Of a stretch of DNA of 40,368 nt, positions 1-5,873 are shown in pieces (within the stretch, counting starts at the first letter, position 1; every line of letters begins with the position of its first letter). Below the pieces are notes generated by a model, which saw nothing but the letters and a program-made list of their open reading frames with translations, did not search any database and had not been told where the DNA came from. The stretch is taken from positions 1 to 40,368 of the forward strand of contig MFJN01000009.1 in the NCBI GenBank assembly GCA_001779235.1, in the 5' to 3' direction. The position numbers were made by a program, and so were the translations under genes. The DNA comes from Candidatus Gottesmanbacteria bacterium RIFCSPHIGHO2_02_FULL_40_13. Its GTDB lineage: Bacteria; Patescibacteriota; Microgenomatia; 2-02-FULL-39-11.

Positions 1-179
1 ATATCGCAGATGAAGCATTTTTAACCGGAACCGGAGCTCAGGTCGCTTGGATTGCTGAGGTTGACGGCAGGGTGATCAGTTCAAAAATAGGTACGATAAC
101 CGAAAAAATCAAGAAATTATTTTTTGATATCGTACGGGAAAAAGAGAAAAAATACTCCGGTTGGCTGACGAGGATATAG
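1..179 (+). CDS. ilvE: Branched-chain amino acid aminotransferase, C-terminal fragment (5' end outside the window)
   Basis: Frame 3 reads IADEAFLTGTGAQVAWIAEVDGRVISSKIGTITEKIKKLFFDIVREKEKKYSGWLTRI then TAG at 177-179. The EAFxTGTxAxV...VDGR pattern is typical of the class IV aminotransferase (IlvE) C-terminus. It sits beside the leu genes. Confidence 0.7.
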   Translation, partial: IADEAFLTGTGAQVAWIAEVDGRVISSKIGTITEKIKKLFFDIVREKEKKYSGWLTRI

Positions 180-323
180 ATAGATAAAAGTATTATAAGT
201 TTTTTCCCTAAATCTACTAACTACAGTTAATAACAAACTGAAGACTTTATTTGATACCACTCAATTTCCTATAAATCTCCACGATATATTATCTACAATT
301 TATCACTTAATAATTACTATAGG

Positions 324-351
324 TTGTAAAATAATATTATTTTGTTATAAT
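324..351 (+). promoter_or_regulatory. Sigma70-like promoter for the 1083-aa gene: TTGTAA, 16-nt spacer, TATAAT
   Basis: TTGTAA at 324-329 and TATAAT at 346-351. Only 10 nt (ATCCTCCATC, no Shine-Dalgarno) separate the -10 box from the ATG at 362, which suggests a leaderless or near-leaderless transcript. Confidence 0.45.
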
Positions 352-361
352 ATCCTCCATC

Positions 362-3300
362 ATGAGTAGATTTGAAGTAGCTGCATCTATTGGCTCATTA
401 TGGCATAATGAACAACCTACAGTGATTCTGTTGCTTCGGCAAGTCATAAGCGAGCAGTTAGTACTTTCCGAGCCAGTTCATGATCTATTATCACATTCTC
501 TACATGTTCGTAACTTAGCCAACGCGGTATCTATCAGGATAAATGAAAGATTTCCTCATATGGTAGACTCTGATTTAGTGGCCTCATCTGCTGTAATTCA
601 TGATTGGGGAAAATTAAAACATCAACCCACGATCAATAGACCTTATTCACATTACATCAGAACGCAACTAGATACTGCTTTGGCAGGCTTTCCAGCTATA
701 GGATCAATAGCCGGACGTCATAATTTTGGGGCGCTTCTTCGCGATGACCCGCTTCTTTTGGAACAAATGATTATAATTTATGCCGATATTCGGGCACGAA
801 GTGAGACAGTTGAAGGCGTTGTCTGCCGTCGCTATAAAACTTTAGAAAATTCATTACCCGAAATAGCTGAAAAATTGCGTGAAAGCGGTAAATATACTAA
901 AGATGATATTTTAAAAGGAAATAAAAGACTGGTTGAATTTGAAGCCATACTACGTAAGAACAATATAAATATCGATGATTTATCGGAAATACCGGACGGG
1001 CTTACTCCTAATACTAGACAATATTATAATCCATCACCTGCTTCATCCTCAGTACCTATTTATAAGACAAGCAAAGAAGAGTCCGATCAATTTCTGGCAG
1101 ACTTGCACCAATTAGACATTCTTACCTTATCAGATGAAGTATGTGCAAAATCTAATTTTATAAGATCAACCATTAAGGGAATTATTTCTGGGGATGAAAA
1201 AGCTTCAACGAGACTGGCTTTAATCGATCCATCACGTATTCCACAGTGGATAAATTTATTACGCATAAAAAACCAAAATAGAATATTAAAAGAGACAACA
1301 GAGCATCCAGATCAAAATTTTTCACTAATTTCAAATCCTAAGGTATTACATGCCGCACGCGTGAATCATATACGAGTGCTAAGAGAGGTATTTTTCCTTT
1401 CAGAAGAACCTGATTTCAGAAAAAGAATATTATCGGCAATAAGCTCATTATTCATGGGAAATGAGATTCAGGAAGATGATGTAGCATTTCACGCTGCTAA
1501 AGCCTATGGAGAAATGGTAGGAGATATGAAAGATGAGGATCGATCTTCATATTTAGAACAATTGTGGGAAGAATATAACCTAGACAAGGAATGTTCTTAT
1601 GCTCCAACAGCTCTTGAGCAATTGGCAAAACGACGTGAAGACCACGCAAAAGAATTATATAGAAGGATGTCTACCGATTTGCTTCATACTATGGGTTCGC
1701 GGGCAGTTAGTCTTTTTTCCCAAACGTTATTAAAAATAGGCGATGTGGATTTAGTAAAAGAGGTCGCCTCAAGAAGTCGGGGAGATGATGTATTAACAAA
1801 TGCCCGAGAATCAATCCGGTATGCCCAGTTACTAATTCCTCTTTTGCATGCCTCAGATATTAGGATACGAGTTGAGGCTATATCCGGTCTGGTTAACTTA
1901 CATCAGAGAACATCAAATTTATCTTTAAAACTATATATAGAAGGTTTAATTGATTTAAATCGTGTTCACAGTGTAGAACATCATAGAGAGGTTTTGGCAG
2001 CTTTAAAAGTATGTGAAGACCCTTTGGAAAAAATTGCTTTATGTCAGGTGATTGGAAAAATTTCATACGGAGAACACTCTGAATTATTACAGTCTGCGGC
2101 CGATACTTTGCTAAAAATATTAGATGAAGATATGGATAACGACGTAAAATTACAAGCTTTAATTGCGCTGGGAAGAGATGGACTTACTAGATATTTAAGC
2201 GTGGAGCAGGCATCTAAGGTTTTGGACAGCTTATGGAGGATATTCTATTTTAATCAGCAAGCCCGGAAAGTGATGCCGTATTTTATTGCAGGAATATACG
2301 CCAGTAGAAAAGATTTACCTCACATGGGTAAAGATTTGAGTAATCTAATGGAAATTGTCAGTAATGAAAATCATCCGGATAGGCAATTTCAATACGAGGC
2401 TGCAAGAGTATTTATAGGTTTGGTTGGAGCCATAGATGATGATAACGATGAAAGAATAAGATTTGCTCAGCAGGGAATACTGCAAACTCAAAATATTTCC
2501 CCGCAATTGTTTGAATTAGTATTTCAAAAGTACGTAACCAGAGTATCCAGAACTTCCCGTTTAACCACAGAGCAAAAGGCTAAAAGAATAGCAGGGAGTA
2601 TGGTCAGAAAATATATGTCTTCAGTTCAGGGTGATATGACTTCAAGATATATAACATATGATAATTTACATTCCAGCATGGTGCTGCCGGCAGGAAAATC
2701 GACCGATGTGGTGGTATTTTCTGGTACTTTTGACCCAGTACATAATGGTTCAGAGGTGGCGGCGGAAGTAGTCTCTCAGTTGGTCGGAGATGTATTTATG
2801 CAGGCAGACGATGGTAATCCAAGCAAAAATCCAAAAGCAAGAGAAATAAGAAATCAAATAATTACCAAAGCCATCGCTGACCAGCCGGGGGTATATTTGT
2901 GGAACGAGCCGCACCCTTTTGTTTACCGCAAACCTGAAGAATATGCTGAACTAAGAAGAGTTTTTAAAGATAGGACAGTATGGTTGCAGGTCGGCGAGGA
3001 TAGATTGAGACAAAGTTCATTCTACGAGGATTTCAAGAATTATGTATATCTAGTACCACATGTTGTGACAATTAGGGAAGCAAATTTTCCATCCTGTCAG
3101 TTAGAATTTAGAGACGGCATAATTGTCGGGGAGGTAGATGACAATTTACTTACGTATTTACAGACAAAACCTGATTTTATGGCAAAAATAGCCCGTTTTC
3201 ATAGAATAAAAGTAATTGGAGTACCCACAAACTTCAGTTCCACTGAAATTAAAAACCAAATACAAAGAGGAGTCTTGCGGAATGTGGATCCGTCAACAAG

Positions 3301-3613
3301 GAGGGTTATTGCACAAGTTTATGCCGATGAATCGATAGCCGATCATATCGAGCAAAGAAGGGTGATAACAGACGCCGGGGAGTTTGACAGACGACGCCAG
3401 GATGATGAATTATGGTTAATGCCTGAGGAACAAGTAGATAATTTACTCACTCAATTACCATCGATTGCAGATATACCGCCAAGAGATAAACTTTTTGTAT
3501 ATTATGATCCCATAACCGGGTATGGTTATTTATGTTATTTAAAATCCTTATCTCATAAGACTGAGAGGATAATTCAAGTTTTTAATATTAACTCAACAAG
3601 TTTGGAAGGATAA
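362..3613 (+). CDS. Large multidomain protein: N-terminal HD phosphohydrolase domain (YqeK-like), central HEAT/PBS-lyase-like helical repeats, C-terminal NadD-like (cytidylyltransferase-fold) nucleotidyltransferase domain, plus a ~100-aa tail
   Basis: Uninterrupted 1083-aa ORF. HD signature: HSLHV (aa ~45), VIHDWGK (aa ~78-84), AGRHNFG, IIIYADIRA. HEAT-like units: EDDVAFHAAKAYGEMVG, ASDIRIRVEAISGLV, DNDVKLQALIALGRDG, HPDRQFQYEAARVFIGL. NadD-like region: VVVFSGTFDPVHNGS (nt 2708-2752), NPSKNPKA, WLQVGEDRL, and NFSSTEIKNQIQRG, which matches the ISSTxIR motif. Confidence 0.75.
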   Translation: MSRFEVAASIGSLWHNEQPTVILLLRQVISEQLVLSEPVHDLLSHSLHVRNLANAVSIRINERFPHMVDSDLVASSAVIHDWGKLKHQPTINRPYSHYIRTQLDTALAGFPAIGSIAGRHNFGALLRDDPLLLEQMIIIYADIRARSETVEGVVCRRYKTLENSLPEIAEKLRESGKYTKDDILKGNKRLVEFEAILRKNNINIDDLSEIPDGLTPNTRQYYNPSPASSSVPIYKTSKEESDQFLADLHQLDILTLSDEVCAKSNFIRSTIKGIISGDEKASTRLALIDPSRIPQWINLLRIKNQNRILKETTEHPDQNFSLISNPKVLHAARVNHIRVLREVFFLSEEPDFRKRILSAISSLFMGNEIQEDDVAFHAAKAYGEMVGDMKDEDRSSYLEQLWEEYNLDKECSYAPTALEQLAKRREDHAKELYRRMSTDLLHTMGSRAVSLFSQTLLKIGDVDLVKEVASRSRGDDVLTNARESIRYAQLLIPLLHASDIRIRVEAISGLVNLHQRTSNLSLKLYIEGLIDLNRVHSVEHHREVLAALKVCEDPLEKIALCQVIGKISYGEHSELLQSAADTLLKILDEDMDNDVKLQALIALGRDGLTRYLSVEQASKVLDSLWRIFYFNQQARKVMPYFIAGIYASRKDLPHMGKDLSNLMEIVSNENHPDRQFQYEAARVFIGLVGAIDDDNDERIRFAQQGILQTQNISPQLFELVFQKYVTRVSRTSRLTTEQKAKRIAGSMVRKYMSSVQGDMTSRYITYDNLHSSMVLPAGKSTDVVVFSGTFDPVHNGSEVAAEVVSQLVGDVFMQADDGNPSKNPKAREIRNQIITKAIADQPGVYLWNEPHPFVYRKPEEYAELRRVFKDRTVWLQVGEDRLRQSSFYEDFKNYVYLVPHVVTIREANFPSCQLEFRDGIIVGEVDDNLLTYLQTKPDFMAKIARFHRIKVIGVPTNFSSTEIKNQIQRGVLRNVDPSTRRVIAQVYADESIADHIEQRRVITDAGEFDRRRQDDELWLMPEEQVDNLLTQLPSIADIPPRDKLFVYYDPITGYGYLCYLKSLSHKTERIIQVFNINSTSLEG

Positions 3614-3619
3614 AAATTT

Positions 3620-4717
3620 ATGTCCAATTTAATTGAACAAGGATGGCCTAAACCAATACTAGACAAAAATAAATTAGACCGAAAAGCTCGAATTGCAATT
3701 CGTGGCGCATTCGGGCAACTGGGAACCAGACTAATTGGAGCCTTGGGAAAACAACTGGATCTTGAAGCTACGATTGGACTGGTAAGAAGAGATCCTACAG
3801 TGGAACTGAGAGGATTTGCCGCAGTCGAAGGACATCCGGATTTACAATTATTTACCACCGATGAAAGCGAATTGGGAGCATTAAAAGATTTAGGTTTCAA
3901 TGTTGGTTTATGGACAAATGATCACTTTAGGGATGTTGATTTAATGATTGACACCACACCGCCCGGAAAAGGAGCTGATTTTGCCTATCGGTCAAGAGAA
4001 AATAATAAACCAATTATCGTGCAGTCAGGCGAAAGAGGTTTTGGCAGATTAGTTTCACCTCCTCTCATAGCCGGAGGCGAGGGGATAATTTTTGAGGCAG
4101 GAGACTGCAACGTCAATGCAATTAGTGTGGTTGGAAGTGCATTAAGTGGGATTTTAACAAGAGTCGGGGTAAATATATTAATGCAGCACGGAAGATTTTT
4201 TCACGGAAGGCTCAGAGATGAACCGGTAATATCAACATATTTTGTTTCCGGAAAACCTACCCAAGAACATTTACAACACTTGTTTCCTATTTTAGATCTT
4301 ACCGTAGGAAACATAAGCCAAGTTCCTTCTCTAAGGTATTATACTCATAACTTTGTCATGGAAACTGCGGATCTTGTAGATGCGGGTGAAGTGAGAGATC
4401 TTTTAGACAAACATCCAAGAATCAGATGTCTTCCGCATGCAACTTCAACTTACGACGTGCGGGAGTATGATAATATACTCCGTGCAGCCGGAGGCGCGAG
4501 ATTACCGCCAATTGTACCTATAATAGTTCAGGGAGGCACACCTTTTCAAAAATCTAAAACTGTTGAAATGATAGTTACAATTGATTCCAGAAGAATTACA
4601 GTTTTACCAAACATAGATGCAGCGCGAACTCTTTTATGGGGAGTAGAACCTATAGAATCAATGAGAATAACTGATGAAACTATGCACTTTGTTAAACCAC
4701 CCGATGAAATTAAGTAA
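3620..4717 (+). CDS. Rossmann-fold dehydrogenase resembling archaeal type-II glyceraldehyde-3-phosphate dehydrogenase (divergent)
   Basis: Colinear motif matches to archaeal GAPDH: IAIRGAFGQLG (dinucleotide loop), DLMIDTTPPGKGADF, PIIVQSGERG, catalytic-Cys region AGDCNVNAIS (archaeal SCNTT), VPSLRYYTHNFVMET, DKHPRIRCLP, VLPNIDAARTLL. GGAAGGA lies 9 nt upstream of the ATG, which is 7 nt after the upstream stop. Confidence 0.6.
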   Translation: MSNLIEQGWPKPILDKNKLDRKARIAIRGAFGQLGTRLIGALGKQLDLEATIGLVRRDPTVELRGFAAVEGHPDLQLFTTDESELGALKDLGFNVGLWTNDHFRDVDLMIDTTPPGKGADFAYRSRENNKPIIVQSGERGFGRLVSPPLIAGGEGIIFEAGDCNVNAISVVGSALSGILTRVGVNILMQHGRFFHGRLRDEPVISTYFVSGKPTQEHLQHLFPILDLTVGNISQVPSLRYYTHNFVMETADLVDAGEVRDLLDKHPRIRCLPHATSTYDVREYDNILRAAGGARLPPIVPIIVQGGTPFQKSKTVEMIVTIDSRRITVLPNIDAARTLLWGVEPIESMRITDETMHFVKPPDEIK

Positions 4718-4796
4718 TTTTAATTTTTATTCCCGGGCTGATGGTAGAATAAAGAATAATATATTTCGCTTAGAAATGAATTTCTTGTAATATTAA

Positions 4797-5873
4797 CTAC
4801 TTGCAATTCGAAAGAATAACTTCACCCATTTCCTTTGTCCCTAATATATTTTTCTTTTCCGTTAAGATTGTCGCAATATCTCTGGTTCTCCATCCCTCAT
4901 TAAGCGTGTCTGTCACCGCGTTGCAAATACTAACCCATTCTTTTGAGAGATGGAAACTATACTTGAGCATCATTTCCACTGAAAGAATAGCGGCAATGGG
5001 GTTTGCAATATTTTTTCCTGCTGCTTTTGGATATGAACCATGGATCGGTTCGTATAGCGCAACGCCTGAGCCGATCGATGCGGAAGGTAACATTCCTAAT
5101 GATCCTACTAAAACCGAGGCCTCATCGGTCAAAATATCGCCAAACATATTTTCAGTCAGAATGACATCAAATTGAGATGGGTTTTTGATAATCTGCATTG
5201 CAGCATTATCGACAAACAGATGATTTAATTCGATAGATGGATATTTCCGGGATATTTCCGTGACAGTTTCACGCCAGAGCCGTGAGGTTTCCAGAACATT
5301 GGCTTTATCAACAGAGGTAACTTTACCTCTTCTTGTTAAAGCCATCTCAAAGGCAACCTTGGCAACTCTGGTGATTTCATCTTTGGAGTAAATGGAAGTA
5401 TCGACAGCAGTGTTTCCTTTATTATATCTCAGTCTTGGTTTGCCAAAATAAATTCCTCCGGTTAATTCCCTAACGATTATTAAATCAACATTTACTAATC
5501 TTTCTTTCTTCAGCGGAGAAATGTTTATTAAATCCTTGTAAATTTTGACTGGGCGAAGATTTGTAAAAAGTTTTAATGATTGACGCAGTTTAAGCAAGCC
5601 CTGCTCCGGTCTGATTTTTGCTTTTGGGTCTAAATCGTATCTCGAATCGCCAATTGCTCCAAAGAGAATCGCATCGGCACTCTGACAAAGTTTCAAAGTT
5701 TCATCCGGCAGAGGACTTCCGGTTTTATCAATGGCTGTTGCGCCGATAAGTCCATATTTTAATGTAAAAACATGATGGAATTTTTCGGCAATTTTATTAA
5801 GTACATTGACAGCTTGTTCGATTACTTCCGGCCCAATTCCGTCACCTGGAAGAACTGCTATAGATTTTTTCAT
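4797..5873 (-). CDS. leuB: 3-isopropylmalate dehydrogenase
   Basis: IAVLPGDGIGPEV N-terminus, NLRP, IVRELTGGIYFG and NMFGDILTDE motifs. Last gene of the leu cluster. Confidence 0.95.
   Translation of the reverse strand: MKKSIAVLPGDGIGPEVIEQAVNVLNKIAEKFHHVFTLKYGLIGATAIDKTGSPLPDETLKLCQSADAILFGAIGDSRYDLDPKAKIRPEQGLLKLRQSLKLFTNLRPVKIYKDLINISPLKKERLVNVDLIIVRELTGGIYFGKPRLRYNKGNTAVDTSIYSKDEITRVAKVAFEMALTRRGKVTSVDKANVLETSRLWRETVTEISRKYPSIELNHLFVDNAAMQIIKNPSQFDVILTENMFGDILTDEASVLVGSLGMLPSASIGSGVALYEPIHGSYPKAAGKNIANPIAAILSVEMMLKYSFHLSKEWVSICNAVTDTLNEGWRTRDIATILTEKKNILGTKEMGEVILSNCK

Follow-up and report, generated by a model that had tools for sequence, protein, structure and literature searches.

A GAPDH-like protein with tyrosine at the general-base position is encoded next to a giant HD/nucleotidyltransferase-like protein on an inserted cassette of a Candidatus Gottesmanbacteria genome

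Contig MFJN01000009.1 of Candidatus Gottesmanbacteria bacterium RIFCSPHIGHO2_02_FULL_40_13 (positions 1 to 40,368; this whole stretch of 40,368 nucleotides is referred to as the window) carries two adjacent plus-strand genes, P0002 (362..3613) and P0001 (3620..4717), which together make up most of a cassette of ~4.6 kb (177..4796) that is inserted between the 3' ends of ilvE (3-176, plus strand) and leuB (4797-5873, minus strand). P0001, an open reading frame with an ATG start, encodes a 365-aa protein related to type II glyceraldehyde-3-phosphate dehydrogenase (GAPDH) and belongs to a clade here termed GDC, whilst P0002 encodes a 1083-aa partner in which weak Pfam and NCBIfam matches identified an HD domain, a HEAT-like helical solenoid and a NadD-like nucleotidyltransferase (NTase) domain. 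P0001 may be a type II GAPDH paralogue that has taken on another function together with this giant partner, and the evidence for this is set out below. At the gene junction (3604..3619, plus strand) a purine-rich Shine-Dalgarno (SD)-like GGAAGGA (3604-3610) lies within the 3' end of the upstream gene, followed by the TAA stop of the latter (3611-3613) and the 6-nt spacer AAATTT that leads to the P0001 ATG at 3620; the earlier sequence-only reading, which had placed this ATG 7 nt past the upstream stop and the SD within the upstream gene, was thus correct on both points. Neither a terminator nor a promoter of its own for P0001 would fit into a junction of 6 nt, and this arrangement is most simply read as one operon. 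P0001 was concluded to be a real gene because homologous clusters were identified in other metagenomes, three of them with 86, 60 and 59% identity and a fourth, P0022, with 43%, and because the ratio of nonsynonymous to synonymous substitutions (dN/dS) against the 86% orthologues amounts to 0.17-0.18, the same value being obtained for the upstream partner gene. An opposite-strand open reading frame of 108 codons (3574-3900) that overlaps the junction was found to be without support, and a convincing terminator 3' of the P0001 gene was not found.

Profile and structure comparisons consistently revealed archaeal type II GAPDH as the closest family of P0001. The type II GAPDH models of NCBIfam match the protein (NF003251 with E 9e-19, TIGR01546 with E 7e-12), its scores of 67.7 bits (NF003251, cut-off 185) and 45.2 bits (TIGR01546, cut-off 232.9) falling below both family cut-offs, and Pfam yielded only a sub-threshold DapB_N match and none to Gp_dh_N or Gp_dh_C. 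When the PDB was searched with phmmer, the matches were four archaeal GAPDH structures only (1b7g with E 1.4e-9 over residues 25-359), and a profile of the clade matched 1b7g, 2yyy, 2czc and 1cf2 at E 2e-35 to 4e-23 over ~340 residues, the next PDB families being E4PDH and type I GAPDH at E 4e-8. An AlphaFold2 prediction based on only four close homologues was unusable (predicted local distance difference test score, pLDDT, of 44) and was replaced by a model based on the 81-sequence alignment described below, for which a pLDDT of 94.8 and a predicted template modelling score (pTM) of 0.93 were obtained. Foldseek ranked four archaeal GAPDH structures first for this model (2czc, 1b7g, 1cf2 and 2yyy; template modelling (TM) scores of 0.73-0.80, E ~1e-20), type I GAPDH, E4PDH and ASADH scored lower (TM 0.53-0.63), and proteins belonging to the GapDH-like superfamily filled the list. 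Consistent with membership of this superfamily, P0001 possesses an N-terminal Rossmann Gly-rich loop and a cysteine, Cys163, that starts helix 163-174 in the model. The block-by-block similarity to archaeal type II GAPDH claimed earlier hence extends over the full length in all four comparisons (NF003251, phmmer, profile and Foldseek), with the two-domain fold being collinear throughout by Foldseek and by profile, and the best matches do not fall in an unrelated Rossmann family. P0001 and the archaeal enzymes share a nucleophilic Cys in the corresponding position, the DxTP, QxGE and NIDAxR blocks and the Rossmann loop glycines; yet P0001 has only ~18% identity with the archaeal type II enzymes (NF003251/TIGR01546; cd18127), scores far under the family cut-off and possesses a GxxGxxG instead of a GxGxxG loop.

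The position of P0001 relative to the canonical enzymes was derived from an hmmsearch of a representative library of 1.84 billion proteins, which returned 102 proteins whose full-length members fall, by their motifs, into two groups, i.e., canonical type II GAPDH (35 clusters) and GDC (~46 clusters). From these an alignment of 81 sequences was built (46 GDC and 35 canonical rows), and in the maximum-likelihood tree, rooted with the type I GAPDH of the host genome, the 46 GDC rows are split from the 35 canonical rows by a branch with a length of 1.6 and a Shimodaira-Hasegawa-like approximate likelihood ratio test (SH-aLRT) support of 97. The phylogeny that the sequence-only reading had called for thus places P0001 in a separate clade next to canonical type II GAPDH, and within this clade P0001 groups with P0004, P0005, P0006 and P0022 in a subclade of five clusters (SH-aLRT 100). 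The two groups differ in the dinucleotide loop (GY-GTIGKR in canonical enzymes, GxxGxLGxR in GDC), in a second block (QGGE versus QSG), in the Cys motif (SCNTT versus (R)QGDC), in the phosphate segment (RRAxDP versus MQ(Y/H)), in the His pair (PSHH versus no SHH), in the His219 segment (TTLMH versus xxYY) and in the C-terminal block (ENIDAIR versus LPNIDAxR).

The consequences for the active site are best seen against the GAPDH from Methanothermus fervidus (1CF2), for which Cys140 was described as nucleophile and His219 as base with Asn141 possibly assisting, whereas one phosphate site is formed by Ser139, Asn141, Arg167, His193 and His194, and the substrate-phosphate site by Arg167 and Arg168 (PMC12041015). 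Cys140 corresponds to Cys163 of P0001, which is a Cys in 46/46 GDC clusters, and the earlier proposal that the candidate catalytic Cys is retained, with GDCNVNA aligned to SCNTT, was thereby confirmed. The preceding Ser139 is replaced by Asp162, an Asp in 37 of the 46 clusters (Asp162-Cys163, GAC TGC, 4103..4108, plus strand). At the position of His219 all 46 GDC clusters possess a Tyr, Tyr241 in P0001 (TAT, 4340..4342, plus strand), as compared to His in 31 of the 35 canonical clusters, a result obtained from the pairwise as well as from the 81-sequence alignment. Asn141 is retained (Asn164) only in the P0001 subclade, with Ile, Leu or Val in other GDC members, and Thr142 has become Val165 in P0001. 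Arg167 and Arg168 are replaced by M188-Q189-H190, for which two alignments differ by one register, neither of them placing an Arg there, and the region 212-217 that corresponds to His193 and His194 is devoid of a His pair. The previous remark that the SHHGPDV region differs therefore stands, P0001 having no counterpart of it, and can be refined to the extent that SHH belongs to a phosphate site (His193/His194) and that the base His219 is lost as well. Due to the loss of His219, of Arg167/Arg168 and of His193/His194, P0001 is, as judged from its residues, not a GAPDH, GAPDH activity proper being unlikely.

In contrast to these substitutions, the dinucleotide-binding part is common to both groups. 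The loop G29-A-F-G32-Q-L-G35 (3704..3724, plus strand) is one residue longer than the type II GxGxxG motif, its glycines G29, G32 and G35 each reach a conservation of at least 90% in the 81 sequences, and the Gly-rich loop, D111, Q135 and, near the nicotinamide pocket, N331 and D333 are shared by GDC and the canonical enzymes, an observation that favours a functional NAD(P) site and suggests that the NAD(P) pocket of P0001 is intact. The position of the NADP-determining Lys33 is occupied by Arg56 in P0001 and varies within the subclade. With regard to glycolysis, the host genome was found to encode another GAPDH, as had been suggested for checking, namely a type I enzyme of 342 aa with an SCTTN motif on contig 57, which is the sole PF02800 match in the genome. 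P0001 itself is not the enzyme that serves glycolysis in this genome. A canonical GAPDH likewise co-occurs with a GDC member in three of the five other genomes tested, the two without it being small CPR (Candidate Phyla Radiation) assemblies. The Micrarchaeota metagenome-assembled genome (MAG) JAHFGR01 encodes two GDC paralogues (L017 3647-4801 and L018 3306-4421) in addition to a canonical GAPDH. Public records name GDC proteins 'glyceraldehyde-3-phosphate dehydrogenase', examples being P0128 from a Woesearchaeota MAG (L035) and P0032 from a JGI record (L036), both of which are devoid of His219 and of the phosphate-site residues despite this label; GDC proteins from DPANN and CPR genomes are probably mislabelled as GAPDH in a systematic manner.

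Two further features set the P0001 subclade apart. The first is an N-terminal extension (3620..3682, plus strand) with the invariant residues W9-P10-x-P12-I13, which is missing from type II GAPDH and from other GDC members, the latter aligning from residue 17-22 onward. Its presence had been recognized before, but its length amounts to ~21 residues relative to 1b7g and 1cf2, not to 24. This WPxPI extension might dock the enzyme on the solenoid of the partner protein. The second is a strand/loop segment (M188-Q189-H190...F193-F194-H195-G196-R197-L198-R199-D200-E201-P202-V203; 4181..4228, plus strand) which replaces the phosphate-binding segment RRxxDP and contains, within FFHGRLRDEPV, the basic cluster H195/R197/R199, invariant in the subclade, that may form a new anion site.

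The weak matches of the partner P0002 are to an HD domain (residues 43-143), to HEAT_2 (545-607) and to a NadD-like domain (782-1000). The last of these scores ~20 bits as compared to family cut-offs of 112-315, and its motif GTFDPVHNGS possesses HNGS in place of (H/T)xGH, whilst the host encodes two separate NadD-like genes (contig 63: 5785-6324 and contig 1: 27425-27967) with ~110 bits each, both just under the TIGR00482 cut-off of 112.45. From the deviating motif, the low score and the two better NadD-like genes elsewhere it was concluded that this domain is not the housekeeping NadD. A combination of an HD (YqeK-like) phosphohydrolase with a NadD-like NTase is also found in the nadD-yqeK pair and the NadD-YqeK fusions of Firmicutes and mycoplasmas (NF005519; PMC9426524); P0002 differs from these by its size of 1083 aa, a helical spacer of ~600 residues, the reversed domain order and HNGS for HxGH, and no dehydrogenase partner is known for NadD-YqeK. 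Upstream of P0002, a promoter-like site of the extended -10 type (TTGTAA, 16 nt, TG-TATAAT; 324..351, plus strand) was the best consensus match of the region, the total of consensus matches in the scan not being above that of shuffled sequences. It ends 10 nt before the partner ATG without an SD in between, which suggests a leaderless or very short-leader transcript.

Coupling of P0001 to the HD-HEAT-NadD-like gene, as proposed from the window, was found to be conserved. The partner-linked subclade comprises five clusters, and the gene context was read in four lineages, i.e., all but P0022; in each of these (4/4) a gene for a protein of ~1081-1083 aa is located directly upstream of the GAPDH-like gene. 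The junction varies between them, from the 6-nt gap of the window (100% identity) to gaps of 5 nt in L006-8 and L016 (GAPDH-like identity 86%) and 2 nt in L009 (60%), and to an 11-nt overlap in L001-5 (59%). Both genes are inherited together, the divergence of the partner (identities of 81-82% in L006-8/L016, 55% in L009 and 50% in L001-5) paralleling that of P0001. Metagenome scans that used either the subclade alignment or just P0022 revealed no further loci.

A parallel to this arrangement was identified in Firmicutes, where distantly homologous 1560-1640-aa proteins of Oscillibacter and Lachnospiraceae match the HD (40-200) and NTase (780-910) regions of P0002 collinearly and with equal spacing. 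In 4/4 loci (L023 7001-13936; L024 7001-14574; L025 4973-11073; L026 6001-13048) the gene directly after that of the giant encodes 384-415 aa and weakly matches Ldh_1_N; in those three loci that offer enough room it is followed by a gene for an FMN_red protein of 346-353 aa. The Firmicutes giant, the LDH/MDH-like protein and the FMN_red protein appear to form a conserved, apparently unstudied three-gene module of their own. The Firmicutes proteins, named 'cytidyltransferase-related domain proteins', hence share with P0002 homologous HD and NTase domains at the same spacing and a gene for a Rossmann dehydrogenase fold next to them, whereas they differ by the LDH/MDH-like nature of the partner, by FMN_red as third gene and by ~170 extra N-terminal and ~550 extra C-terminal residues. 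The Firmicutes LDH-like partner was also considered as a GDC homologue, which was rejected (hhalign probability 1%). That a dehydrogenase-fold partner recurs though its fold has been exchanged is the strongest argument for a functional pairing, and a giant HD-NTase protein plus dehydrogenase-fold partner was therefore considered a recurring module.

That window positions 177-4796 represent an insertion was concluded from two relatives, one of the same genus (G001; L030, C4) and one of the same family (G002; L031, C26), in which leuB and ilvE abut convergently without the cassette, with a 4-nt overlap in G001; the window stretch 3-176 encodes the last 58 residues of the class IV aminotransferase IlvE and is 83% identical to residues 249-306 of the G001 protein. 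At the cassette borders only short, chance-level repeat matches were found, and no integrase, transposase or other mobility genes were seen. The GC content of the cassette equals that of the host, with GC at third codon positions (GC3) being slightly lower. No homologue was detected in 60 relatives or in an evenly drawn set of 400 phylum genomes from 320 genera, so that this genome is the only carrier among 61 relatives and among 401 phylum genomes. The gene pair is thus conserved across rare, scattered carriers but absent from related genomes. A second inserted copy (82 and 86% identity for the two proteins) was identified in L016 (GCA_964365795.1, CAYIRL010000010.1, 4090-8928), where it lies between rplJ and rplA; this copy adds a 135-aa open reading frame without Pfam match and resides within a normally invariant ribosomal-protein cluster. 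Flanking genes are wholly different between carrier loci, with PIN and AAA_14/DUF4143 upstream in L001, DUF5654, DUF433/DUF5615 and serS downstream in L002, and PhdYeFM downstream in L009. DUF5654 and serS, in opposite orientation, also adjoin L012 (8220-14280), one of the loci (L012, L013-L015) of P0013, a 1086-aa homologue of P0002 with 44% identity, whose gene faces two convergent genes encoding 407 and 518 aa without Pfam match. As indicated by these sequence comparisons, the pair moves as an accessory cassette of 4.6 kb among rare CPR genomes.

Considering the above, P0001 is viewed as a neofunctionalised type II GAPDH paralogue, probably an NAD(P)-dependent Cys oxidoreductase that acts on another substrate and is paired with the giant partner, a reading to which even confidence, neither more nor less, is assigned. 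The GDC clade has preserved the fold with its two domains, the loop that binds NAD(P) and Cys163 as nucleophile, whilst the His219 base has been exchanged for Tyr241 and both phosphate sites have been lost. Mechanistically, Cys163, perhaps activated by Tyr241 or Asp162, would then form a thiohemiacetal or thioester, with hydride being transferred to or from NAD(P), and the substrate would be other than glyceraldehyde-3-phosphate plus phosphate. The subclade has gained the WPxPI extension and H195/R197/R199, and P0001 would be the second gene of a translationally coupled operon. P0001 and P0002 are predicted to act together, probably as a complex, in which the NTase and HD domains of P0002 might make or trim a (di)nucleotide that the dehydrogenase would bind as cofactor or substrate.

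Several observations weigh against this reading. The GDC members outside the subclade lack the big gene nearby and have no shared neighbour at the nine loci inspected. They stem from Micrarchaeota (two genomes), from one MAG each of Woesearchaeota and Methanosarcinales, from Colwellbacteria and Kerfeldbacteria and from two more contigs of bacterial origin; as these members stand alone, the enzyme is not intrinsically in need of the big protein. None of their neighbours is similar to P0002, including the single cases of an FMN_red protein by L036 and of a 396-aa HEAT_2-repeat protein that is divergently adjacent to the L018 copy. Conversely, P0013 occurs without a GAPDH-like gene, and neighbouring genes give no hint to a pathway. 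Runs that carry the sequence are groundwater and soil DNA metagenomes only, RNA runs being absent among them. Furthermore, the fold match is partly built in, since the 81-sequence alignment used for the AlphaFold2 model contains true GAPDHs, and the missing His base could equally signify that catalysis has been lost.

An extended version of the neofunctionalisation reading would take GDC as a new Cys/Tyr(/Asp) catalytic type devoid of phosphate sites that, in this cassette, constitutes the redox half of a new two-protein machine, whose giant partner constructs or modifies an unusual (pyridine) dinucleotide or a nucleotide-linked aldehyde or acid, CPR bacteria (with a GAPDH-like partner) and Firmicutes (with an LDH-like partner and a flavoprotein) having assembled the same machine independently; in this full form it is put forward tentatively and with low confidence. 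According to a different explanation, P0001 is a non-catalytic, dinucleotide-binding pseudoenzyme subunit that senses NAD(P)(H) or the NadD-like product and thereby regulates the giant partner. Such a role would be in line with the classical base and both anion sites being lost while the Rossmann loop is retained, with the tight coupling to a NadD-like and HD protein, and with a different Rossmann fold occurring in the same place in Firmicutes, as expected if dinucleotide binding matters. Nevertheless it is regarded as unlikely, as all 46 clusters, partnerless members included, possess Cys163 and Tyr241 without exception, a pattern more in keeping with an active site than with a sensor, and as conservation extends to N331 and D333 near the nicotinamide pocket.

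The extremely patchy distribution of the cassette, its unrelated insertion sites, one of them inside the rplKAJL cluster, and toxin-antitoxin-type neighbours in three contexts (PIN plus AAA_14/DUF4143, DUF433/DUF5615 and PhdYeFM) raise the idea of a conflict or defence module of anti-phage or addiction type that manipulates NAD or nucleotide pools. This idea is assessed as distinctly unlikely, since neither P0001 nor P0002 matches a PADLOC-DB v2 model at E <= 1, viral contigs contain no relatives of either, Pfam and NCBIfam revealed in the two proteins neither a nuclease, Sir2 or TIR domain nor any other effector domain, the Firmicutes relatives sit among housekeeping genes, and the base composition matches the host. 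That P0001 is a diverged but genuine phosphorylating GAPDH (or of the GAPDH/E4PDH type), which would supply the cassette with its own NAD(P)H or 1,3-bisphosphoglycerate, is very improbable, because, although type II GAPDH accounts for all of the best matches in sequence and in fold, Cys163 and, in the subclade, Asn164 are retained and public annotations name clade members GAPDH, the scores are far under both curated cut-offs, Tyr occupies the His219 position in 46/46 clusters with Arg167/Arg168 and His193/His194 missing, a long branch sets the clade apart, and the same genome as well as 3/5 other carriers encode a canonical GAPDH.

Within the GapDH superfamily, replacement of this kind has precedent: E4PDH, ASADH, ArgC/LysY and the archaeal malonyl-CoA reductase keep the fold and the Cys, with activating and substrate-binding residues having been re-invented several times (PMC12041015). 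The GDC clade resembles these neofunctionalised members in that fold and Cys are kept and other active-site residues are replaced; however, none of them possesses a Tyr at the His219 position together with an Asp before the Cys, and GDC scores to E4PDH/ASADH-type members, by sequence as well as by fold, are much weaker than those to type II GAPDH. The 2025 review of the superfamily (PMC12041015) lists no Cys/Tyr clade beside GapDH_II, and a literature search found no description of the GDC clade or of the two-gene module. The earlier suggestion of an unrecognised functional module is supported, the pair being conserved among its carriers. Fold and superfamily are familiar, and novelty lies in the composition of the active site and in the partner.

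If the neofunctionalisation reading holds true, the GAPDH label on the GDC clade is probably wrong and would inflate the glycolytic capacity inferred for reduced DPANN and CPR organisms. The invariant exchange of Cys-His for Cys-Tyr would then add one more case in which a GapDH-superfamily active site was re-invented independently, coming along with a new substrate. The module is clonable as a compact 4.6-kb cassette, and its strict pairing, echoed in Firmicutes by a non-homologous partner, would point to an unstudied nucleotide-linked redox module.

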